From the IMG/VR virus record IMGVR_UViG_3300037420_002488, positions 997-64,996 of that record: a stretch of 64,000 nt of DNA; one strand, written 5' to 3'. Shown in pieces: positions 51,692 to 63,732 of this stretch. This stretch comes from a virus. Lineage: Duplodnaviria > Caudoviricetes. A model generated the notes under the pieces. That model made no database searches, had not been told where the DNA came from, and saw only the letters and a program-made list of their open reading frames with translations. The position numbers and the translations under genes are program-made. The stretch's first letter is position 1. Each line of letters starts with the position of its first letter.

Positions 51692-54600
51692 ATGCCATCT
51701 GGACTGTCCGACGCATCCCCGCGCTATGTCCCCCTCGATGAACAAGACGCCTCGCAGGCGGTAGTGCAGCCGCCGAAGCGCGAAGAGTTAGTCCGGCCCA
51801 AGGGCTACATGGACTTTGTGGCCCGCAACAAGGCCGCGGCCCCAGCCCCTGCGCCACCCAGCCTGACCGAGAAGTTTGTGGGCGGGGCCAAGGATTTGGC
51901 CTCAACCGTTGGCGATGGCCTGTCCAGTGCGGCGGGCTGGGCGAAATCCCAACTTCAGCCCGAGCACATGGACCTGAGCAATGCTGCGGCGCAAACCTAT
52001 CCGCCGATGGGCAACAACGCCGATGTGGGACAGGGTCCGCAAGGCTTCGAGCGGGTGGGCATGGCGCCGTTGAACGCTGCCAAGCCCGAGAACGGCGCGC
52101 CTGCACCAGTCGACGCCGGCCGTTTCAAGGCCATCAAGGCTGAGCTTGGCGCCATGCCGCGTGCTGAGCGCCTGAAGGTTGGCGAAGACCTCAAGGGGTG
52201 GCAGGCCGAAGCCGTCAAGGTGGCGAATGCGCAGCTCGATCAGGAGCAACAGGGCATGGAGTCCCTGGGCATGAACGCCGTGTCACCCACGCTTGAGGGG
52301 CGGGCCGCGCACTACACCTCGCAGGGCGCCGACGGGCCCACGGCGATGGCGCTGGCCAAGCGCGACATGGGCATGGGCGCGGCAGGCGATGTGCTTCGTA
52401 GTGCCGAGCCCCCAACGGCGAAGGGCAACGAGGCCGGCAACCTTGCCACGGACACAGCCGTGTCGCTGGCCAAGGGTGTGAACTCGGTCGGCACCACAAC
52501 TCTGCGCCTGGCCGACATCCTGACGCCGGGCAACAGCGGCGACGAAGACACCATGAAGGCCGCCACGCTGGGCAAGGCCCTTGACTTCTTCCAGGACCGC
52601 GACCGCGAGCTGGACGGCCTGCTGAGCACCAAGGCAAAGGAAGCCCAGCAGGCCGTGAGCCAGGCCAACGGCTTTTTCTCCGCTGCGGGCAAGGCTTTGT
52701 CCACGCGCTCGGGCTTCCTCATGGCGGCCGAGTCTCTGCCGTCCTCGATCGCCGCCGGGGGCTTTGCCATCAAGGCATCTGAGCGGATCATGGCAACCAA
52801 GCTGGCCCAGGCCGGTGTGCAGCGCATCTCGCAGAATGCAGCATCCAACGTGCTGGCGCGTGGTGGCAGCGCGGAGGCAGCCAAGATCGCCGCCGAGCGG
52901 GCAACGGCCATCGCACACACAGCCACTGCCAGCGCGATGATGGCGGCAGCCGACTTTGCCATGGATGGCACGCAGGCCTATGACGACGTCATGAGCGAGG
53001 TATCGCACATGCGCGAATCGTCGTTCGACAACAGCCCGATGTACAAGGAACTGCGCGCGTCTGGCTTGGATCACGCCACGGCCGCGCGCACTGTGGCGAA
53101 GGAAGCTGCGGCCCGTGCCTTCCTGTATGGCGGCGCCATGTCGGCACTCGTCTCGCCGCTGGGCGCGGGCGTCGAGATGCGCGCTGCTGGCAAGGCACTG
53201 GGCATGGCCAACGTGAAGGCCGCAGGCAGCGGGTCCACGGCCCGCACCTTCCTTGCCTCCCTGGTGAACCCCGAGAGCCTGCCGGCTGTGGTGGCCATCG
53301 AGTCGCTGCAGGAAGGTCTGCAGAGCGGAGGACCCCAGGCCGGCCAGAACCTGGCTGTTCGCCAGACTGCAGACAGCACGAAGAGCCTGTCCGATGGCGT
53401 TGCAGCGGCGGCCGGTGCTGGCGCCGCAACCGGCGGCATCATGGGCGGCGGCATGCACATGGTGGCTGGCGGTGATCACGCCGCGCCCGCAGCCGTCCCT
53501 GATGCTGGCCGTGTCCCCGGCCAGCGCGCCGAACCCGTGCTTGCGCCTGCCAAGCACGATGATGGTCCCATCAGCGCTGACGAGGTGCTGGGCGCGGTGC
53601 AGCCTAAGCCCGCCACACCAGTGGATGCCGCTGCCCACGAAGCCGCGACAAGCCCGACCAACGACCGCCCCGAGCCCACGCAGGCCCAGAAGGAAGCGGG
53701 CAACTACAAGCTGGGCCACACGCGCATCGCCGGACTGGACATCAAGATCGAGAACCCTGAGGGCTCGACGCGCAAGGGCGTGGGCGAAGACGGCAAGCCA
53801 TGGGAAACCACGATGCAGGCCCACTACGGCTACATTGCGGGCACCGAGGCGAAGGACGGCGACAAGCTGGACGTGTTCGTCAAACCCGGCACGCCCGAGG
53901 ACTGGCACGGCGCGGCCTATGTCGTTGACCAGGTCGATCCCAAGACCGGCCAACTCGATGAGCACAAGGTGATCTTCGGTGCAGCCGATCAGGCCGAGGC
54001 CGAGCAGATCTACCGCAGCAACTACAGCAGCGACTGGCAGGGCATGGGCGCCATCACGCGGCTACCCATGCCTGCGTTCAAGGCCTGGGCCAAGAGTGGC
54101 CGCCTCGATGAGCCGCTGGGGGACATCTCTGCGCGGACGCAGCAGTCCGTCAAAGCCACACCTGAGCAAGCGGCAACGACCCAGCCCGAGGCCCCGGCCG
54201 TTGAAGTTGCTGCACCTGACGTGGGTGCTAGCAGCGATGCCACGCCCGCAGCAGGCGCACGCGCTGCCGATCCCGCCAGGCCGAAGGCCAGGCCGCCGCA
54301 GCTCGACCCCGAGCACGACACCATGTTGCAGGCATTAGCCAAGCTGGGCGGCATTCGCCGAGATACCGTGGCCAGCGAATTCGGCCTCAAGCCGGAAGAG
54401 CTGCAGCACGCCGTCAGCACGGGCAAGCTCAAGGGCTACCCCTTCCGTAAGACCGGCGGCATGGACATGGACCAGGCCCTGACCGCGATGTCGGAGGCGG
54501 GCTACTTCGATGGCGTACCCGAGGACCAGCACCGCGCCGTGTTCGAGCAGGCCATCCACGATGAACTGGGCGGCCGCCCACGCCTGACCACTCACGGCCG

Positions 54601-57600
54601 CATGCGCGAAGCCGCCCAGGCCTTCAGCGACAACCAGGAGCAGGCGCGTGCCAGCGCCGAGGCTGATGCCCAAGGTCAGGCCGAGCTGGATGCCGAGCGC
54701 GCCGCCATCATGGCGGAAGCTGGCCTCTCAGATGAGGGGCTGTCCGCCCTCACCGACGACGATATCCGGTATGCTGAAAGCGCCGGGACCACGGACGCCG
54801 AGCACGCGAAGAGCATGCGCGCTATGGGGTTCACCGAAGAGGAAATCGCTGATGAGCTCAAACAACGACAAGGCCCGCAAGGACGCGATCAAGAAGGTAA
54901 TGGCGCTGCCGCCCGAGAAGCGCAAGCGCCTGATGGAACTGGAAGCGCAGCACCGCGGGATGAACGAGCCCGAGGTGACGGCCGAGCAGCGCCAGCAGAT
55001 GCTGGACGAATCCAAGAAGGCACGAAGCGCCCCGGCGAAAAAGTAAAGCCGGGCGAACGCCTCAAGCGCGTCTCCGACTATTTCACGCCCGGCAACATCG
55101 TCAAGGGCTACGGCGGGCACAGCCGCGTCATCTCGTTCGACTGGGTGAAGGGAAGCCCGGGCCGGTTCAATGTCAAGGTTCAATCCGTCGTCAAGGATGG
55201 CGAAGGCTGGAAGGTCGATCCCACAGACGCCCGTGAGCGCGTGCATTCCACCCAGCCGACTGACCGCGAACTGAAGGCCGGGCCCGTCGGGCAGTGGAGC
55301 GAGCCAGCCCTGACCAGCCATACCGAGTCTGACCTGCAGGCCAAGGCCGAGCGCGAGGCCGATGGCGTGAAGGCGGAAGCCAAAGCCAAGGCGACCGATG
55401 CCGCCAAGGTGCGCCAGGCCGACGAGGCCAAGGACAACAAGGCCCGCGCCGACGCCACCGTCGAAGACTTCGAGCTGGGCAAGTCGGCTGACGAACAGAT
55501 GTCCGGCATGGGCGACATGTTCGCGGACAAGCCCGGCAAGGCCAACACCATCTTCACCGAAGACGCCGCAGCCGCGGCCCGCGCGCTGCTGCGCAAGAAG
55601 CTGGGCACACTGAACAGCGGCATTGACCCCGAGATTCTGCAAGCCGGCATCACGCTGGCGGGCTATCACATCGAGCGCGGCGCCCGCACCTTCACGGCGT
55701 ATGCAAAGGCCATGGTCGACGACCTCGGCGAGGCCATCAAGCCCTACCTGAAGTCTTGGTATATGGGGGTCAAGTACGATCCGCGCGCGTCGGGATTCGA
55801 TGGTATGAGCAGCGCCGCCGATGTGGAGGGTGCCGATATCCACGCAATCACCGACAATGCGCCACAGGAGACGAAGGCCGATGTATCAGACACCAGCGCC
55901 GATCTGGAACCAGATCGCAAAGACACAACCAGTGCAAAGCGCGTACTGGCGCAGCCTGATGGAAATGAACCAGCAGGATCTGACCAACGCGCTGGGAAAG
56001 CTGGAAAGCGAGCTGGAAGCCAAGGGAGCCGACGCGGCGACGACGCGGGCGTACCTGCTGGTGGCGCCGCTACTGCGCGAGAACGTGGCGATCAGCCGGT
56101 TTCTGGAGGCTCAACAGTCGAGCGACCTGCGCTCGTGCCTGCCGGAAGTGACGTCGATCAACGAGGCGGTGGCTTTGGCGACCGAGGAATTCCAGTTGAA
56201 ACCGTCTCAGCAGGATCAACTCGCGCAACTGCTAAAGACGGACTGGCACAAGGCGTAGCCAACCGGGCCCAGCGCCAAGCACCCAAGGGCTTCAAGGCCG
56301 CCGACCTCGACAACATCCGCGAGACACTGCCCCTGCTGCAGGGTAAGCAGCAGGAGGATGTGCACCGCGCCGAGGTGCGCTTTGCCGAGCCCGACGGCTA
56401 TGGCATTCTGTTCACAAACGGGACCGGCACGGGCAAGACCTACACAGGCATGGGCGTGGTCAAGCGCCTGGCCATGCAGGGCAAAGACGACGTGCTGATG
56501 GTGGCGCCGTCGGACAAGATCATCGAGGACTGGATCACCACCGGCAAGCGCTTCGGGCTGGACATCACCAAGCTGGCAAGCACCAGCGATTCCGGCAAGG
56601 GCCTGGTCATCACGACCTATGCCAACTTCGGCGACAACAAGACGCTGGCTGATCGCTCGTGGGATGGCGTTGTGCTTGATGAGGCGCACTACCTCATGCA
56701 GGCCGAAGACGGCAAGCCCACGCAGGCCCTGAACGCGCTGCGCGCGATCACCATGCACCCGGACGGCGCTCACACACTGCACGCCATGCGCAACCGCGCC
56801 GATCTGGCGCAGCACGATCAATTGCTCAGCGACATGCGCGCGGCCTCGAAGGTGATCGACAGCGGCGCCAGCAAGGACGAGAAGGCCACGGCCCAAGCTG
56901 CGCTGGACGAGCTCAAGCCGAAGTACGAGGCACTGCACGCCAAGCTGGAAGAGGCGCGCAAGGCCATCAAGGTAGAGGTGGGCAATGCGCAAGGCGCCGA
57001 TCGCACCCGCGTCACCTTCCTGAGCGCTACGCCATGGGCCTACGTGCCGACGGTGGACTGGGCAAACGGCTACCTGTTCGACTACAGCGAAGGCCAGCCT
57101 GCCGACGAGACCAGCCGGGGCTACAACGACGGCAGCAACCGTGAGCGCTTCTTCATGCAGCACTTCGGCTACCGGATGCGCTACAACAAGCTCACCCGGC
57201 CGGACGCCAAGGTGAACGTCGGCCTGATGGAGCGCCAGTTCAATGCCTGGCTGCGCAAGTCTGGCGCGCTGTCCGCCCGCACGCTGGATGTGGCTGCCGA
57301 CTATGACCGCCGCTTCGTGCTGGTCGAGTCCGCCATCGGTGCCCGCATCGATCAGGCGCTGAACTGGATCAGTGAACGCGCCCGCGGCAACCGGGAAGAG
57401 AACATCCCGGCCGACGAGGGAGCCCGCGCGCTGGCCAACGTCCTGGACAAGCGCTTCGACTACCTGTCGCGGCGCTATTTACTGGAAGCGATCAAGGCCG
57501 AAGAGTCGATCAAGTACGTGCGCCAGAACCTGGCCATGGGCCGCAAGGTCGTGGTGTTCCACGACTACAAGAAGGGCGGCGGCTTCAATCCGTTCGATCA

Positions 57601-60600
57601 GCCCGAACTGCCTGCAGGCGGCGATGACCTGGTGGCCGCCGAGCGCGTCGAGAAGTACAACGCCGCGTTGCGCGACTTCAAGGCCGAGTTCAAGGATCTG
57701 CTGGCGCATCCTTTCGCCACGATGGCTTCGCCGATCCAAGCCTACCAGAAGGCTTTCCCGAACGTGCTGCTGTTCAACGGCGACGTGTCGCCCAAGGACC
57801 GGCGCGCGGCCGTGGCGAAGTTCCAGACTGATGACAGCGAGCACAACCTGATCCTGGTGCAGTCGGCCGCCGGCAAGGAAGGCATCAGCCTGCACGACAC
57901 CACGGGCAAGCATCAGCGCGTGCTCTACAACCTGGGTCAGCCCACGCAACCCACCACTGCGATCCAGCAGGAGGGCCGCACCTATCGCACTGGCCAGGTG
58001 ACCAATGCCATCTTCCGCTACTTCAATACCGGCACCAACTGGGAGAAGTGGGCCTTTGCTACGACCATCGCGCAGCGCGCCAGCACGGCCGAGAACCTGG
58101 GCATGGGCGAGCAGGCGCGCGCCCTCAAGGACGCCTTCATTTCGGCATTCGAAGAGGCCGATGCCTACCCGCCTGGGCACGAGGGAGAAGGCACGGGCGG
58201 CAAGGCCCGCGACCAAGCTGCCAATGAAGCCCTGACCGAGTTCGACCGCGCAGTGTCGTTCTACTACGGCACCCAGAAGAAGAGCGCCCGCACCAAGGCC
58301 GCCGAGGGCAAGGACTACTTCGCCACGCCCGAGCCGCTGGGCCTGAAGATGGTCGAGTGGATGAACCCCCATGGTGGCGACCATGTGCTGGAGCCCAGTG
58401 CTGGGCACGGCGCCATCGCGCGCTGGCTGCCCGAGAACACCGAGCGCACGGCCGTCGAGCCGTCCACCACGCTGCGCCCGCGCCTGGCCATGGTGTTCGA
58501 CGGCAAGATCGTGGCATCGAACTTTGAAGACCTGCACATCGCCAACAAGTTCGACGGCATCGTGATGAACCCGCCATTCGGCGTGGGCGGCAAGGTGGCT
58601 ATCGAGCACCTGGACAAGGCTGCCAACCACCTGCGTGATGGCGGCCGGGTCGTGGCGCTGATCCCAACCGGGCCCGCTGCAGACAAGCGCTTCGACAAGT
58701 GGTTCCACGACGAAGAGACCCGCGCCAGCAGGCCACTGTATACCGACGAGCGCCTGGGCCCCATCCATGAGGGCGATGTCTTGACGGGCAGCAAGTCCAT
58801 CAACGGCCTGAAGATGATCGTCGGCCATGTGGACAAGCACCCTGATGGGCGACGCACGGTGCGCCCAAAAGGCGAACTGGTCAAGTCGGGCGTCTGGCTG
58901 AACTTCATCGAGTCGGTGCAGCCCGGGCCGCGATCGGAGACCTACCGACCGGCCGAAGGCCTGCACATGGTGGCCGACATCAAACTGCCGCAGGTGGCAT
59001 TTGAGCGCGCAGGCACGTCAGTGGCCTCGCACGTCGTCGTGCTGGAGAAGCTGGCCAGCGGCACCGAGCCGCCCGTGACGCGTCACATCGACCTGTCGGA
59101 CGCCAAGGACATTCAAGAGCTGTTCGAGCGCATCCGCGACTTGTCCTTGCCGCCTCGCTTGAAGCCCGAAACCCAGGAGGGCAGCGCCGATGCCGATCCC
59201 GTGGCCACGACCTTGAAGAGCGCGGTCAAGCCGTCAAAGACTCAGATTGCCGAGTTCGGCCAGGCGCTGGCCGAGAAGCACGGCATGACCATTGCCGAGC
59301 ACACGACGGGCAAGGGCAAGGTGTTGAAGGGCGTGGTGAAATCCGACATCACGCAGGCCCAGGCCAAGGCGGCCGACGCCTACACGTTCAAGAAGGACGG
59401 CGGCTGGTTCATCCGTGCCGAGCACGTTCCCGCGATGCTGGGCGAAGAGATGCCCGCGTTTTCACTTCCGCCCAGTGCCAACGGCCGTGCCGTCGGGAAG
59501 GACGGTAAGGTGCTCACGATTGGCAAGCTGAAAGCTGATCAGTTCGTCTCGCGCATCGCCAGCAACTGGAAGGGGCTGACCCGCACCAACATCGTGGTTG
59601 TCGACTCGTTCGCCGGGCTGCCGCTGGAGATCATCCACCACGGCCTGCGCAGTGGGGGCGTAAAAACGCTTCAGGAAATCCAAGGGGTTGCGCATAACGG
59701 CAAGGTCTATTTGGTGGCCAACACGATCGCCGATGAAAACGAGTTGCAGACAGCGCTCTTTCACGAGGCCTTCGGTCACCTTGGCGTCAATGCCGTGATG
59801 GGTGCCCGCACGGTCGGCACGCTGTCGTCGCTCATGGATTCTATGGGTGGTTTAAAGGCCATCGAGGTCATGGCCCGGAAAATTCGGACATCCGACACCG
59901 AAACGGTTTGGGATCGCCTGCAGCCCTACATCCGCAACCTTGGCGATCAGGTCGATTCGAAGATGGGGCGCGCCGTGATCGCCGACGAGTTCCTGGCCTT
60001 CGCCGCCCAGGTCAACGACCAGTCGGTGCTGGCCAAATTCAAGGGGTACCTCTCGGATGCGAAGGCGGGCATGGCGCGCTTCGCCCGTGCTGCTGGCCTG
60101 AAGGGGCTGGCCGCGCGCCTGGAGCGAATGACCGATGGCGACGTCGCGGCCTTCGTGCGCGACGCCCGTCGCGCCATCGTCACCGGCCAGGCCCCGCGCA
60201 GCGGCCGGTATGTGATCGCGCGCGCTGATGGCGACAGCATGCCGTCAGCGCACAGCTTGCGCGCGGCCGTAGCCACGTCGCCCGCCGACGGCGCCACCCT
60301 GAAGCCATCGAGCGGCATCCTCGACACGATCTTGCGCAAGGCTGGCGGCACTGTGGTGGCGCGCCTGACCTCGCCAGGCTACACGCGCTTGATCAGCATG
60401 ATGGACCGGGCGCTGGAGTCCTACGGCGGCAAGGCCTACGACTATGCCAAGTCGGGCCTGGTGTCCGATCGCGGCCTGAGCGAGCCGTATATTGAAGCCC
60501 GCGCGGACATGCGCACGGCCATCCGCCGCGGCGCGCGCGAGACCAAGACCATCATCGACAACCTGCAGAGCCTGGACCGCGCTCAGTCACGTATCGCCTA

Positions 60601-62965
60601 CCTGTGGATGAGCGAGAAGCCCGACACCGAGCAAGAGCGCGCCTTGCTGGCCGAGCTGCCGGAAGACAGCCGCACCGTGCTGCTGCAGCTCAAGGACCGC
60701 ATTGAGCAACTGAGCCGCGAGGCCGTCGACCTTGGCCTAATCTCTCAGGACACCTACGAGCGCAACTCGATGGCCTACCTGCACCGCAGCTACAAGCGCT
60801 ACGAGGTCAGCGACGACAAGGCCAAGGTCGTGCGTACGCGCGCCATCAAGATCCTGGGCGACCAGTTCAAGGGGCGCGGCATGCGCGACGACGTGCCCAT
60901 GAGCAGGATCCAGCAGTCAGACTGGTGGGCCCGCAAGGAAGCCCGGGGCAAGGCCGACGACAGCCTGAAGGGTGAGAAGTTCATCCGGCTGGAGCGCCGC
61001 GAGATGCCCGACACCAGCACGGCCGAGCTATTCGAAGAAGGCAAGCCCCGGCCATTGGGGCGCCTTCTCGAGGTGGCCTATTGGCCGGCCAGCGAGGCAC
61101 TGCCATCGAAGTATGCCGACTGGCGCCAGGATGGAACCTGGGAGGCGCGCTTCTTCAACAAGCCCGGCAAGGTGGGCATGTGGCGCGACTTCACGCTGGC
61201 TGAGCGCACGGCCATGGGCGAAATCCAGGAGGTGCGCTACAGCACCGCCAAGACCATGCTGCAGATGACGCGCGACGTCGAGACGGCCCGCCTGCTCGAC
61301 TGGGTGGCCCGCCGCGAATCGCGCCTGCTCGAAGACCAGATCCCCGACGGCCACACCGTGGTGCCCGCCAAGGAAAGCATGCTGCGGTCCTACCTGCCCG
61401 ACGAGTGGGTGCAGGTGCCTGATGCAGGCATCCCTGGCACAGGCGGCCTCAAGCGCTTCGGCAACCTGGCTGGCCGCTTCGTGCCGGGCCCGGTCTGGAA
61501 TGACCTTAGGCAGCTTTCGGGCATGACCGACCGCGGCGATGTGGCCAAGATGTACGACCAGGTGATGAAGGTCTGGAAAATCTCCAAGACCGCCCTGAGC
61601 CCGACCACGCACGTCAACAACGTGATGTCGAACTTCATCTTTGCCGATGCTCACGACGTGCAGGCCAGCCACATCCTGGCCGCCCTGAAGGCTTGGGCCT
61701 CGCACAAGAAGGACAAGCAGGCAGCCGATCTCATTGCCGACTACCAAGACAACGGCGGCGACGGCGGCAAGTTCAACGACGCCGAGCTGCGCGAAGATGT
61801 CATGGGCGAGATGATCGCCGAGCTGGAGCGCGAGGTGGGGAAGGGCAGCCCCACGGCGGCCGTCACCGCGGCGCAGGTGGTCGATCTGGTGCGGCACAAG
61901 GAATTCCGCCAGGCCTTCGCGGCCATTGGCCAGACCAAGACCGCAGGCGTGCTCAAGAAGCCCGCCCAGCAGCTGATCAAGCTGTACGGCCACGAGGACG
62001 AGTTGTTCCGCCTTGCCGCCTTCATCAAGGCCAAAGAGGACGGCCTGACCAGCCGGGCCGCTGGCAAGTTTGCCCACGAGTCGTTCTTGAACTACGACAT
62101 CAACGCGCCCTGGGTGCAGGCCGCCCGTCGGTCTTTCTTTCCGTTCGTGTCGTTCACCTACCGTGCTGTGCCCATGCTGCTGCGCACCTTCGCCGACAAG
62201 CCATGGAAGCTGGCCAAGTACGCCGCAGTGGCGGGCGCCCTGAACGCGCTGGCCTACGGCATGCTGGGCGGCGGTGGCGACGAGGACAAAGAGCGGGCCC
62301 TGCTGCCGGACGAGAAGGCCGGGAAAATTTGGGGCATCTTCCCCAAGCTGATGCGCATGCCCTGGAATGACAGCCACGACTCGCCTGTGTTCCTGGATGT
62401 GCGCCGCTGGATTCCGGCCGGTGACGTGGTGGACATGGGCCAGCAGCACACGGCGCTGCCGGTGCCGTCACCCCTGATGCCCGGCGGGCCGCTGGTGATC
62501 CTGGCCGAGTTGGTGATGAACCGCTCGACCTTCACGGGCAAGGACATCACCAAGGAGACAGACACCCTGGCAGAGAAGTACGGCAAGGTGGGCGACTACC
62601 TGTGGAAGGCCGCGGCACCGAACTTCCCCGGCATCCCAGGCACCTATGCAACCGACTCGATCATGGGTGCAGGCAGCGGCAAGACGGATCCATTCGGTCG
62701 GGAGCAGTCGCTTGGCCAGGCGACCCTGTCATCCGTGGGGGTCAAGCTGGGCAGCTACCCGATCGACGTTCTCACCCAGAACGCCGCCAGAGACGCCAAC
62801 GCCAAGGTGGCCGAACTGCGAAGGGCGATCAAGGCCGACGGCCGCCAACTGGGGCGGAAGGGCATCAGCCGCGAAGAGTTTGACGAGCGAACTGATCGCA
62901 ACAGGGACAAGATCAGCAAGATCAACCGAGGCCTGAGCGAGAAGCTGAAGCAGGGCGAACAGTGA
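51692..62965 (+). CDS. 3757-aa DarB-like polyvalent internal virion protein
   Basis: InPase-like (~53680-54100, GNYKLGH..ENPEGS..DGDKLDVF..DEHKV), SF2 helicase (GTGTGKT 56421, DEAH 56678, QQEGR 57965), N6-MTase (EPSAGHG, NPPF 58568), HEAFGH zincin motif (59762), LPD-like C-terminus. Confidence 0.88.
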   Translation: MPSGLSDASPRYVPLDEQDASQAVVQPPKREELVRPKGYMDFVARNKAAAPAPAPPSLTEKFVGGAKDLASTVGDGLSSAAGWAKSQLQPEHMDLSNAAAQTYPPMGNNADVGQGPQGFERVGMAPLNAAKPENGAPAPVDAGRFKAIKAELGAMPRAERLKVGEDLKGWQAEAVKVANAQLDQEQQGMESLGMNAVSPTLEGRAAHYTSQGADGPTAMALAKRDMGMGAAGDVLRSAEPPTAKGNEAGNLATDTAVSLAKGVNSVGTTTLRLADILTPGNSGDEDTMKAATLGKALDFFQDRDRELDGLLSTKAKEAQQAVSQANGFFSAAGKALSTRSGFLMAAESLPSSIAAGGFAIKASERIMATKLAQAGVQRISQNAASNVLARGGSAEAAKIAAERATAIAHTATASAMMAAADFAMDGTQAYDDVMSEVSHMRESSFDNSPMYKELRASGLDHATAARTVAKEAAARAFLYGGAMSALVSPLGAGVEMRAAGKALGMANVKAAGSGSTARTFLASLVNPESLPAVVAIESLQEGLQSGGPQAGQNLAVRQTADSTKSLSDGVAAAAGAGAATGGIMGGGMHMVAGGDHAAPAAVPDAGRVPGQRAEPVLAPAKHDDGPISADEVLGAVQPKPATPVDAAAHEAATSPTNDRPEPTQAQKEAGNYKLGHTRIAGLDIKIENPEGSTRKGVGEDGKPWETTMQAHYGYIAGTEAKDGDKLDVFVKPGTPEDWHGAAYVVDQVDPKTGQLDEHKVIFGAADQAEAEQIYRSNYSSDWQGMGAITRLPMPAFKAWAKSGRLDEPLGDISARTQQSVKATPEQAATTQPEAPAVEVAAPDVGASSDATPAAGARAADPARPKARPPQLDPEHDTMLQALAKLGGIRRDTVASEFGLKPEELQHAVSTGKLKGYPFRKTGGMDMDQALTAMSEAGYFDGVPEDQHRAVFEQAIHDELGGRPRLTTHGRMREAAQAFSDNQEQARASAEADAQGQAELDAERAAIMAEAGLSDEGLSALTDDDIRYAESAGTTDAEHAKSMRAMGFTEEEIADELKQRQGPQGRDQEGNGAAAREAQAPDGTGSAAPRDERARGDGRAAPADAGRIQEGTKRPGEKVKPGERLKRVSDYFTPGNIVKGYGGHSRVISFDWVKGSPGRFNVKVQSVVKDGEGWKVDPTDARERVHSTQPTDRELKAGPVGQWSEPALTSHTESDLQAKAEREADGVKAEAKAKATDAAKVRQADEAKDNKARADATVEDFELGKSADEQMSGMGDMFADKPGKANTIFTEDAAAAARALLRKKLGTLNSGIDPEILQAGITLAGYHIERGARTFTAYAKAMVDDLGEAIKPYLKSWYMGVKYDPRASGFDGMSSAADVEGADIHAITDNAPQETKADVSDTSADLEPDRKDTTSAKRVLAQPDGNEPAGSDQRAGKAGKRAGSQGSRRGDDAGVPAGGAATARERGDQPVSGGSTVERPALVPAGSDVDQRGGGFGDRGIPVETVSAGSTRATAKDGLAQGVANRAQRQAPKGFKAADLDNIRETLPLLQGKQQEDVHRAEVRFAEPDGYGILFTNGTGTGKTYTGMGVVKRLAMQGKDDVLMVAPSDKIIEDWITTGKRFGLDITKLASTSDSGKGLVITTYANFGDNKTLADRSWDGVVLDEAHYLMQAEDGKPTQALNALRAITMHPDGAHTLHAMRNRADLAQHDQLLSDMRAASKVIDSGASKDEKATAQAALDELKPKYEALHAKLEEARKAIKVEVGNAQGADRTRVTFLSATPWAYVPTVDWANGYLFDYSEGQPADETSRGYNDGSNRERFFMQHFGYRMRYNKLTRPDAKVNVGLMERQFNAWLRKSGALSARTLDVAADYDRRFVLVESAIGARIDQALNWISERARGNREENIPADEGARALANVLDKRFDYLSRRYLLEAIKAEESIKYVRQNLAMGRKVVVFHDYKKGGGFNPFDQPELPAGGDDLVAAERVEKYNAALRDFKAEFKDLLAHPFATMASPIQAYQKAFPNVLLFNGDVSPKDRRAAVAKFQTDDSEHNLILVQSAAGKEGISLHDTTGKHQRVLYNLGQPTQPTTAIQQEGRTYRTGQVTNAIFRYFNTGTNWEKWAFATTIAQRASTAENLGMGEQARALKDAFISAFEEADAYPPGHEGEGTGGKARDQAANEALTEFDRAVSFYYGTQKKSARTKAAEGKDYFATPEPLGLKMVEWMNPHGGDHVLEPSAGHGAIARWLPENTERTAVEPSTTLRPRLAMVFDGKIVASNFEDLHIANKFDGIVMNPPFGVGGKVAIEHLDKAANHLRDGGRVVALIPTGPAADKRFDKWFHDEETRASRPLYTDERLGPIHEGDVLTGSKSINGLKMIVGHVDKHPDGRRTVRPKGELVKSGVWLNFIESVQPGPRSETYRPAEGLHMVADIKLPQVAFERAGTSVASHVVVLEKLASGTEPPVTRHIDLSDAKDIQELFERIRDLSLPPRLKPETQEGSADADPVATTLKSAVKPSKTQIAEFGQALAEKHGMTIAEHTTGKGKVLKGVVKSDITQAQAKAADAYTFKKDGGWFIRAEHVPAMLGEEMPAFSLPPSANGRAVGKDGKVLTIGKLKADQFVSRIASNWKGLTRTNIVVVDSFAGLPLEIIHHGLRSGGVKTLQEIQGVAHNGKVYLVANTIADENELQTALFHEAFGHLGVNAVMGARTVGTLSSLMDSMGGLKAIEVMARKIRTSDTETVWDRLQPYIRNLGDQVDSKMGRAVIADEFLAFAAQVNDQSVLAKFKGYLSDAKAGMARFARAAGLKGLAARLERMTDGDVAAFVRDARRAIVTGQAPRSGRYVIARADGDSMPSAHSLRAAVATSPADGATLKPSSGILDTILRKAGGTVVARLTSPGYTRLISMMDRALESYGGKAYDYAKSGLVSDRGLSEPYIEARADMRTAIRRGARETKTIIDNLQSLDRAQSRIAYLWMSEKPDTEQERALLAELPEDSRTVLLQLKDRIEQLSREAVDLGLISQDTYERNSMAYLHRSYKRYEVSDDKAKVVRTRAIKILGDQFKGRGMRDDVPMSRIQQSDWWARKEARGKADDSLKGEKFIRLERREMPDTSTAELFEEGKPRPLGRLLEVAYWPASEALPSKYADWRQDGTWEARFFNKPGKVGMWRDFTLAERTAMGEIQEVRYSTAKTMLQMTRDVETARLLDWVARRESRLLEDQIPDGHTVVPAKESMLRSYLPDEWVQVPDAGIPGTGGLKRFGNLAGRFVPGPVWNDLRQLSGMTDRGDVAKMYDQVMKVWKISKTALSPTTHVNNVMSNFIFADAHDVQASHILAALKAWASHKKDKQAADLIADYQDNGGDGGKFNDAELREDVMGEMIAELEREVGKGSPTAAVTAAQVVDLVRHKEFRQAFAAIGQTKTAGVLKKPAQQLIKLYGHEDELFRLAAFIKAKEDGLTSRAAGKFAHESFLNYDINAPWVQAARRSFFPFVSFTYRAVPMLLRTFADKPWKLAKYAAVAGALNALAYGMLGGGGDEDKERALLPDEKAGKIWGIFPKLMRMPWNDSHDSPVFLDVRRWIPAGDVVDMGQQHTALPVPSPLMPGGPLVILAELVMNRSTFTGKDITKETDTLAEKYGKVGDYLWKAAAPNFPGIPGTYATDSIMGAGSGKTDPFGREQSLGQATLSSVGVKLGSYPIDVLTQNAARDANAKVAELRRAIKADGRQLGRKGISREEFDERTDRNRDKISKINRGLSEKLKQGEQ
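54852..55046 (+). CDS. Nested +1-frame gene, 64 aa
   Basis: GAGGA RBS, ATG, TAA; hand count 56/64 codons end in G/C versus about 24/64 in the host frame. Confidence 0.7.
   Translation: MSSNNDKARKDAIKKVMALPPEKRKRLMELEAQHRGMNEPEVTAEQRQQMLDESKKARSAPAKK
55881..56258 (+). CDS. Nested +1-frame gene, 125 aa
   Basis: AGGAG 10 nt upstream, ATG, TAG; typical CTG/GCG/GAG codons, amphipathic helices; host frame reads as disordered G/A/R/D. Confidence 0.75.
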   Translation: MYQTPAPIWNQIAKTQPVQSAYWRSLMEMNQQDLTNALGKLESELEAKGADAATTRAYLLVAPLLRENVAISRFLEAQQSSDLRSCLPEVTSINEAVALATEEFQLKPSQQDQLAQLLKTDWHKA

Positions 62966-63000
62966 TGCGGTAGGTCAAGCGCGGTGCTATCGTGGGCGCC

Positions 63001-63732
63001 ATGTGTAACCTATATAACATGACGCCGAAGAACGACTTTGAGGTGTACTGGCGGCGAGTTGCGCGGCAGCCGCTGCGCTTGGCCGACTATGGTGCGCGCA
63101 CGGTTGGGCCGTTCGGGCAGGGTGTTTTCCTGCGGCCTGGCCCCGATAGCGATGTGATCGGGCAGCTCGGTCAGTGGGCGATGATCCGCCCAGGCAGCCC
63201 GCCGCCGAAGCCGGGCGAGAAGCGCTACAACACCAACAATGCCCGGATCGAGTCGATCACCGACAAGCCAACCTATCGGCAGGCCTGGGCCGCTGGCCGC
63301 CGTTGTTTGATCCCGGCCGATTGGTATGCCGAGCCCAACTGGGAGACCGGCAAGAATATCTGGTGGCACCTCAAGCGTGCCGACGGCCTGCCGTGGATGC
63401 TGGCCGGGCTATGGGATGAATGGACGGATCGCGACACAGGCGAGGTGGTGCCAAACTTCACCATGCTCACCGTGAACTGCGATGGGCACCTGCTGCTGGC
63501 CAGGCTGCACAAGCCCGAGCGGGACAAGGCGGGCGCGGTGCTGCCTGCCGACCAGCAGGACAAGCGCTCGCTGGTACACATCGACCCGGCCGACTGGGAC
63601 CGGTGGCTGCATGGCAGCGAGGCCGATGCGCGGGAACTGCTAACCCCCCAGTCCAGCGAAAAGTTCGATCAAGCCGACGCACGTCGCACCGACGCGATCC
63701 TGGCCACGCTTGAGCCGCCCGGCCTGTTCTAA
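63001..63732 (+). CDS. SOS response-associated peptidase (SRAP/HMCES family)
   Basis: M-CNLY with N-terminal Cys, NNARIES, RRCLIPADWYAEP, FTMLT..HPLL-like, LARLHKP. Confidence 0.9.
   Translation: MCNLYNMTPKNDFEVYWRRVARQPLRLADYGARTVGPFGQGVFLRPGPDSDVIGQLGQWAMIRPGSPPPKPGEKRYNTNNARIESITDKPTYRQAWAAGRRCLIPADWYAEPNWETGKNIWWHLKRADGLPWMLAGLWDEWTDRDTGEVVPNFTMLTVNCDGHLLLARLHKPERDKAGAVLPADQQDKRSLVHIDPADWDRWLHGSEADARELLTPQSSEKFDQADARRTDAILATLEPPGLF

Follow-up and report, generated by a model that had tools for sequence, protein, structure and literature searches.

Sequence evidence for a conserved gene nested in the linker before the helicase–methylase module of a giant DarB-like phage protein

Same-strand embedded genes are already known in phages. 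In the Rz/Rz1 spanins of lambda-like and Bcep22-like phages, Rz1 lies wholly inside Rz in the +1 frame (for JC1, PMC9144972). Here we describe a comparable arrangement in a provirus record of IMG/VR (IMGVR_UViG_3300037420_002488, positions 997–64,996; this stretch of 64,000 nucleotides (nt) is referred to below as the window), in which an open reading frame (ORF) of 125 codons at 55881–56258 is contained wholly within a longer ORF on the same strand and in another frame, as are its counterparts in 21 other loci. The longer ORF encodes a giant polyvalent protein of the "DarB-like" type, and the overlap falls in the linker that precedes its helicase/N6-adenine methyltransferase (N6-MTase) module. 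We consider it probable that 55881–56258 is a genuine protein-coding gene, initiated internally. Like Rz1 in Rz, it is a fully embedded same-strand gene in the +1 frame that would have its own ribosome-binding site on one late transcript. Unlike the Rz/Rz1 pair, to which it is unrelated in sequence and function, it sits in an 11-kb gene for a polyvalent virion protein with the overlap in a disordered linker, and it has free-standing relatives, so that it is probably the older of the two partners.

The host gene matches the polyvalent proteins and the methylase–helicase dyad surveyed by Iyer et al. 2017 (PMC5512222), with InPase, superfamily 2 (SF2) helicase and N6-MTase domains; the survey does not mention alternative-frame genes ("overlapping" has 0 occurrences in it). 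Mass spectrometry has identified a more distant giant of similar kind in the virions of Bcep22-like phages (PMC9144972). In phage P1, ulx (146 aa) shares an operon with darB, follows it directly and is not overlapped. Ulx is reportedly required for the incorporation of DarB into heads. The present arrangement resembles that of the P1 Dar accessory proteins (Ulx, DdrA) in that a small protein is encoded next to a virion helicase–methylase anti-restriction protein. P1 DarB, however, has its methylase before its helicase and is not retrieved by the helicase of the window, and hhalign comparison of the nested family with Ulx and DdrA showed no homology (probability 0.1 %, E about 0.5); as a model for a partner role Ulx would offer a functional analogy only. 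The locus also resembles viral overprinting as reviewed in PMC8227390, in which one stretch of DNA encodes two proteins and one of the frames is of low complexity or disordered. In the usual case the embedded frame arises de novo, whereas here the long host frame seems to be the newcomer, by way of a fusion. Our literature search, with most subscription journals beyond its reach, found no earlier account of such nesting in genes for DarB-like or polyvalent proteins, and the arrangement appears to be new.

Position, codon phase and start signals of the nested frame

The giant gene spans 51692–62965 on the plus strand and encodes 3757 residues, its identity being taken from the ORF list, Pfam and motifs. 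Pfam places an InPase domain at residues 664–801, an SF2 helicase at 1554–2153 (ResIII, Helicase_C, Helicase_C_4) and an MTS match, and a small N6-MTase domain occupies residues about 2211–2345. The protein contains the motifs GTGKT (1579–1583, Walker A), DEAH (1663), EPSAGHG (2234) and NPPFG (2293). A multi-domain chain in which an SF2 helicase is fused to an EcoKI/TaqI-like N6-adenine methylase assigns the gene to the polyvalent/DarB-like class, and relatives of the protein are annotated in GenBank as "DarB-like antirestriction", "PLxRFG" or "LPD38 domain" proteins.

The nested gene (product P0001) occupies 55881–56258 on the plus strand, 125 codons followed by TAG in the +1 frame of the giant ORF, with the coordinates and translation given in the initial annotation. 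The invariant motif WNQIA of its family is found at residues 9–13. As that annotation had also pointed out, an AGGAG resembling a Shine–Dalgarno (SD) sequence precedes the ATG (55866–55870, plus strand, 10 nt upstream), the ORF ends shortly before the helicase Walker A codons (168 nt from the stop to nt 56426), and the host frame over the same nucleotides, 55881–56258 on the plus strand, is a low-complexity linker (residues 1397–1522) rich in Gly, Ala, Arg, Asp and Ser that stays open throughout. The helicase module itself follows, the segment from its conserved start (NIRETLPLL, residue about 1541) to GTGKT lying at 56312–56440 on the plus strand. The nested ORF can be extended upstream in frame to an ATG at 55821 (55821–55880, plus strand), but this extension is probably untranslated, as it is not conserved and the homologues, the free-standing genes included, begin at a Met 8–10 codons before WNQIA.

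By itself the length of the nested ORF is no more than chance would give, because the giant ORF, at 65 % GC (guanine plus cytosine), contains longer open stretches of 234 and 286 codons in alternative frames. The signal for a nested gene is that of codon phase and of the comparative data, with length excluded. Over the whole giant ORF, GC content by codon position is 0.67/0.48/0.82. Within 55860–56260 the third-position GC of the host frame falls to 0.35–0.47, against 0.82 overall, and the GC-richest position shifts at about 55860 to the third position of the nested frame, returning to the host frame at the nested stop. By position of the nested frame the values over this interval are about 0.65–0.70/0.40–0.45/0.85 (third position 0.75–0.88), so that the "host-typical codons" ascribed to the ORF in the initial annotation are confirmed.

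The AGGAG at the nested start is predicted to form an anti-SD duplex of −7.4 kcal/mol, better than 97 % of the positions in the gene. In 13 of 20 loci the SD-like motif ranks within the best 10 % of its own gene's background, and the combined Fisher p value for this enrichment is 3.6e-10, which is indicative only, since the loci are related. Neither a sigma-70-like promoter nor an unusual RNA structure was found at the nested start, and the nested gene is therefore presumably read off the late mRNA of the giant gene. The ORF thus has a start codon and a predicted ribosome-binding site of its own.

Because the nested frame is the +1 frame of the same strand, we considered that a programmed frameshift might instead produce a truncated isoform made of the N-terminal 1396 residues and the nested domain. 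Some database proteins with long N-terminal run-ons, such as P0082, would be in keeping with this, but the run-on part of P0082 is out-of-frame junk. The ATG and the SD motif are conserved, free-standing genes start at the same Met, a +1-frame stop lies 1–4 codons upstream of the conserved ATG in 7 loci and leaves little room for entry, and no conserved slippery sequence was seen. Such an isoform is very improbable on these grounds.

Nested homologues and selection on the two frames

Searches of the tblastn type, run with the product and then with an alignment, brought up relatives in viral contigs, metagenomes and one metagenome-assembled genome (MAG); two further long contigs were reached through called proteins. 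Each of the 21 other loci examined has a homologue with an intact ORF at the same site and in the +1 frame (22 of 22 with the window), and the host frame is open in every one (loci L002–L013, L015–L023 and L035 are those cited as carrying nested homologues). The nested ORFs have 115–144 codons, an ATG 8–10 codons before the invariant WNQIA and an SD-like motif upstream, and are 26–81 % identical in loci of 37–66 % GC. They occur in six cultured phages (Skulduggery, Parlo, vB_KpnP_ZX1, Ruegeria 45A6 and two Vibrio phages), in a Comamonas phage-plasmid and in an Acinetobacter baumannii prophage, and in each of these GenBank records the ORF is unannotated, because annotation pipelines forbid genes inside genes. 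Two proteins, P0023 and P0015, had been candidates for stand-alone genes beside a giant gene; both proved to be nested as well, on contigs that begin inside the giant gene.

In AT-rich loci few if any of the host gene's +1 stretches exceed the nested ORF in length, other +1 stretches in loci of 37–49 % GC being 50–100 codons long. This bears directly on the possibility that there is no gene here at all, only an accidental open frame in a GC-rich linker poor in hydrophobic residues, or a recent pair of compensating frameshifts. It is true that longer alternative-frame ORFs exist in the same 65 % GC gene, and that a host peptide poor in Leu, Val, Ile and Met is automatically without +1 stops. 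The ORF nevertheless remains open and alignable with the same ATG at 37–49 % GC, it is conserved at the protein level, it has free-standing homologues and its product has a confidently predicted fold; a recent lesion is excluded because the arrangement is common to all relatives. The comparative data refute an accidental frame, to which we give next to no credence.

The two frames differ in what is conserved. When the same nucleotides were compared in both frames, the alignment score of the nested frame exceeded that of the host frame in 153 of 153 locus pairs (means 162 vs 59), and identities in nested and host frame were, for example, 81 vs 65 %, 65 vs 34 % and 64 vs 47 %. Nucleotide differences counted by nested codon position are 443/371/683, so that within the overlap the third position of the host frame is the least variable, whereas the flanking host frame shows the usual pattern (887/697/1684). 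Stops in the host frame are absent over the overlap in 20 of 20 nested loci analysed, at GC contents down to 37 %. In the free-standing homologues the equivalent frame contains 1–12 stops in 7 of 10 (Fisher exact p ~6e-5 against the nested loci). The scores, the position counts and the missing host stops together suggest that the nested frame is kept for its sequence and the host frame chiefly for its openness, and they indicate purifying selection on the embedded frame along with upkeep of both frames.

Over the nucleotides encoding WNQIA the host frame reads (D/N)LEPD(R/S) (55905–55925 in the window and the same site in all loci). Conservation here appears to be driven by the nested frame, since free-standing homologues keep WN.IA. 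The Gln of the motif varies more in these homologues (WNRIA, WNAVA), a hint that where the gene is nested the host frame places some constraint on the Pro.

Relative to the cultured phages, the nested protein has diverged to 30–41 % identity and the helicase N-lobe to 37–48 %. A protein with about the same degree of conservation as the helicase next to it likely matters for the way in which the phage uses its injected anti-restriction giant. A search of the phage collection with the helicase N-lobe returns, even at E 1e-5, the same 8 records as one with the nested protein. In A. baumannii the nested ORF sits in a helicase–MTase gene of only 1276 residues, the upstream modules being separate genes. 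In the relative of the giant protein at L022:740–6623, the helicase is followed by ART-PolyVal (ADP-ribosyltransferase) and LPD38 domains, from which it appears that downstream modules shuffle while the nested gene keeps its place.

By every sequence criterion available, the nested frame is thus a conserved, selected and separately startable gene. The proposal in the initial annotation of a second gene within the giant ORF is strongly supported by the occurrence of its own start in 22 of 22 loci, by conservation at the protein level and by the free-standing homologues. The term "overprinted" used there holds in so far as a second gene is present; the direction that the term usually implies is probably reversed, the small gene being the older and the host linker the later.

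The protein family and its relatives outside giant genes

A profile of 12 nested proteins matched 76 called proteins in a set of 5.8 billion, most of them on short contigs that cut the giant gene, and, in a set of 1.84 billion representatives, 558 clusters (50 % identity), of which 418 reach E ≤ 1e-10. Most clusters are 115–140 residues long and match from residue 1. The family is marked by an N-terminal WNQIA helix and the motifs PLLxExxAI and EAV. Among 400 genomes sampled from the class of a Moraxellaceae MAG the family was present in that MAG only, and it is therefore rare in the cellular genomes sampled. The AlphaFold2 model, computed with 12 sequences, consists of eight helices (predicted local distance difference test 87, predicted template modelling score 0.81). 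A Foldseek search with this model found no match at E ≤ 0.001 in the PDB and BFVD, the best hit of a wide VIA-align search (colicin pore domains, Z 4.4) was under the noise level for helical bundles, and the family profile found nothing at E ≤ 1 among PDB sequences. Pfam, PHROGs, NCBIfam and PADLOC searched at permissive thresholds gave no credible match, and the ESM Atlas no usable one. The family thus appears to be undescribed, and as far as Pfam shows it lies outside the described LPD domains.

Homologues also exist independently of any nest. P0076 (L024) and P0040 (L026) are free-standing genes in elements that have no giant ORF; they begin at the same Met and have strong SD sequences, which shows that the protein can do without the giant as such. 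In P0150, P0189, P0103, P0169, P0216, P0085 and P0204 the family domain is N-terminal or internal to a fused protein, the C-terminal parts of which are varied and unrecognised except for the DUF6794 of P0204. The latter (L032:3562–5262, 566 aa) has two tandem WNQIA domains before its C-terminal DUF6794 and comes from an organism of 32 % GC. In P0085 and P0079 a C-terminal extension resembles, by eye, an excisionase-type helix-turn-helix, with no Pfam match. The host-equivalent frame is free of stops over the domain at L037:948–1610 (P0085, 47 % GC), L026:1633–2010 (P0040) and L033:1306–2532 (P0103), and these three look as if they had recently been freed from nesting.

Both free and fused forms reside in integrase-bearing islands. 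In 5 of the 8 free or fused contexts with enough flanking sequence, a restriction system with an SF2 helicase and an N6-MTase lies within 4 kb, and in 2 of the 8 it is directly downstream on the same strand: P0150 is immediately upstream of hsdR-hsdS-hsdM, and P0189 immediately upstream of hsdM-hsdS-darT-darG-hsdR. P0076 lies 3 kb upstream of an N6-MTase and S subunit, and P0169 and P0216 lie near pairs of an SNF2 protein and an MmeI-type methylase. In the type I operon that P0189 precedes (L034:9156–15895), a DarT-DarG (DarT, Macro) toxin–antitoxin pair stands between hsdS and hsdR. From these contexts, the A. baumannii locus and the co-retrieval of the 8 phage records, the constant neighbour of the family would be the helicase–methylase rather than the whole giant.

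These homologues also raise the possibility that the nested product is an independent anti-defence or host-takeover protein, housed in the linker without acting on or with the giant protein. Their residence in integrase-bearing islands that lack a giant would fit this, and so would the joining of an N-terminal module to many C-terminal regions, as expected for recognition of host or defence targets, and the frequency with which restriction systems, typical targets of anti-restriction, are neighbours. On the other hand, in phages the gene always precedes this helicase clade (8 of 8 records), it stays with the helicase–MTase where the giant is split, as in A. baumannii, and it matches none of ArdA, KlcA, Ocr and other known anti-defence families in Pfam, PHROGs and PADLOC. 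We regard an independent protein as rather unlikely, though it deserves serious weight.

History and possible role of the nested gene

In the most likely history the small gene came first and the host linker was added later, as suggested by the free-standing relatives and the low complexity of the host frame. The small gene would first have stood free, directly upstream of a helicase–methylase gene, an arrangement that the relatives beside type I and MmeI/SNF2-type restriction systems may have kept. Fusion of upstream modules to the helicase–methylase, in building the polyvalent protein, would then have bridged the small gene in another frame, making the linker the overprint and the nested gene the original. 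In present-day phages ribosomes would initiate internally on the long late mRNA, at AGGAG-N10-ATG as the conserved ATG and SD motif suggest, and so make a separate all-helical protein of 125 residues from the gene. This protein, made from the giant's own message, might be an accessory partner of the helicase–methylase machine, acting in control of its activity or in assembly or packaging. The assignment as an accessory partner or regulator of the helicase–methylase module is tentative, and we hold it at less than even confidence; the frequent placing of free-standing relatives beside helicase/methylase restriction systems would fit a protein that modulates enzymes of this kind.

The initial annotation had gone further in suggesting an antidote by which the polyvalent protein's toxic domains are silenced, up to the moment of injection, in the cell that makes them, which would be a special case of a partner role. 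The nested gene shares its mRNA with the giant protein and sits directly before the helicase, and a restriction enzyme could be held in check in the same manner by those relatives whose genes immediately precede hsdR or hsdM operons. An antidote needed in stoichiometric amounts would, however, be poorly supplied by initiation within an ORF that is itself being translated, and the protein has no resemblance to known antitoxins or immunity proteins. More widely, no profile match to ArdA, KlcA/ArdB, Ocr, Acr or antitoxin families was found in Pfam, PHROGs, NCBIfam or PADLOC, a remote relation being possible. We hold an antidote to be improbable. Co-folding of the nested protein with residues 1530–2400 of the giant gave 0.61, 0.00 and 0.00 in three runs and was counted neither for nor against binding.

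Several points weigh against a translated, older gene that acts as partner of the helicase–methylase module. Its translation is deduced from signals in the DNA. Likeness of codon usage separates the two frames in 13 of 20 loci, all GC-rich, and not in those of low GC, so that it supports a greater age of the nested gene in the GC-rich loci only. The protein is without similarity to any characterised protein or fold. The functional link is one of guilt by association in 8 contexts from mobile elements, where restriction systems are common anyway, and 3 of these 8, P0040 (L026) among them, are without a helicase–methylase system. The co-occurrence of the nested gene with the helicase clade may, finally, be mere physical overlap.

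A broader possibility is that the WNQIA family is a dedicated modulator of SF2-helicase/N6-MTase machines, namely type I and MmeI/SNF2-type restriction enzymes and phage DarB-like anti-restriction proteins, and that giant proteins grew by reading, in another frame, through accessory genes of this sort that were already present. The two parts together are speculative and, in our estimate, unlikely, but if true they would make the family a restriction/anti-restriction regulator of a new class, and would reveal a way of fusing genes, also new, that leaves the bridged gene alive. Short of this, the locus suggests that a disordered linker in a giant phage protein can have arisen as the shadow of a small gene that was there before it. 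It offers a clean and deeply conserved case of dual coding in a double-stranded DNA phage, one in which the long frame and not the short seems to be the newcomer. It also brings to light a sizeable, uncharacterised family tied by position to helicase–methylase restriction systems, a lead to a new modulator of restriction or anti-restriction that is directly testable, as cultured phages carry the nested gene.

The suggestion in the initial annotation that Gly/Arg/Asp-rich linkers of polyvalent proteins generally conceal small genes was not upheld by the other candidates in the giant ORF. For the ORF there called gene 1 (54852–55046, +1 frame, 64-aa product), tblastn found a counterpart in the closest relative alone (L002, 46 % identity) and none in the diverged loci. 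A strong switch of codon phase is present at 54800–55050 (GC by host codon position 0.93/0.72/0.35), and with its match in L002 alone gene 1 would be either a young gene confined to this lineage or a stretch that has lately changed frame. The +1 ORF of 192 codons at 53394–53972, which overlies an Ala/Pro-rich host stretch, was rejected as a gene, its product being Pro/Arg/Thr/Ser-rich junk and unconserved past the nearest relative.

After the giant gene, the window contains a gene (62992–63732) for an SOS-response-associated peptidase (SRAP). A second SRAP gene was observed on an unrelated contig (L039:565–1209), 0.9 kb upstream of the fused homologue P0110, and the two placements may be a coincidence or the leftover of a similar prophage end.

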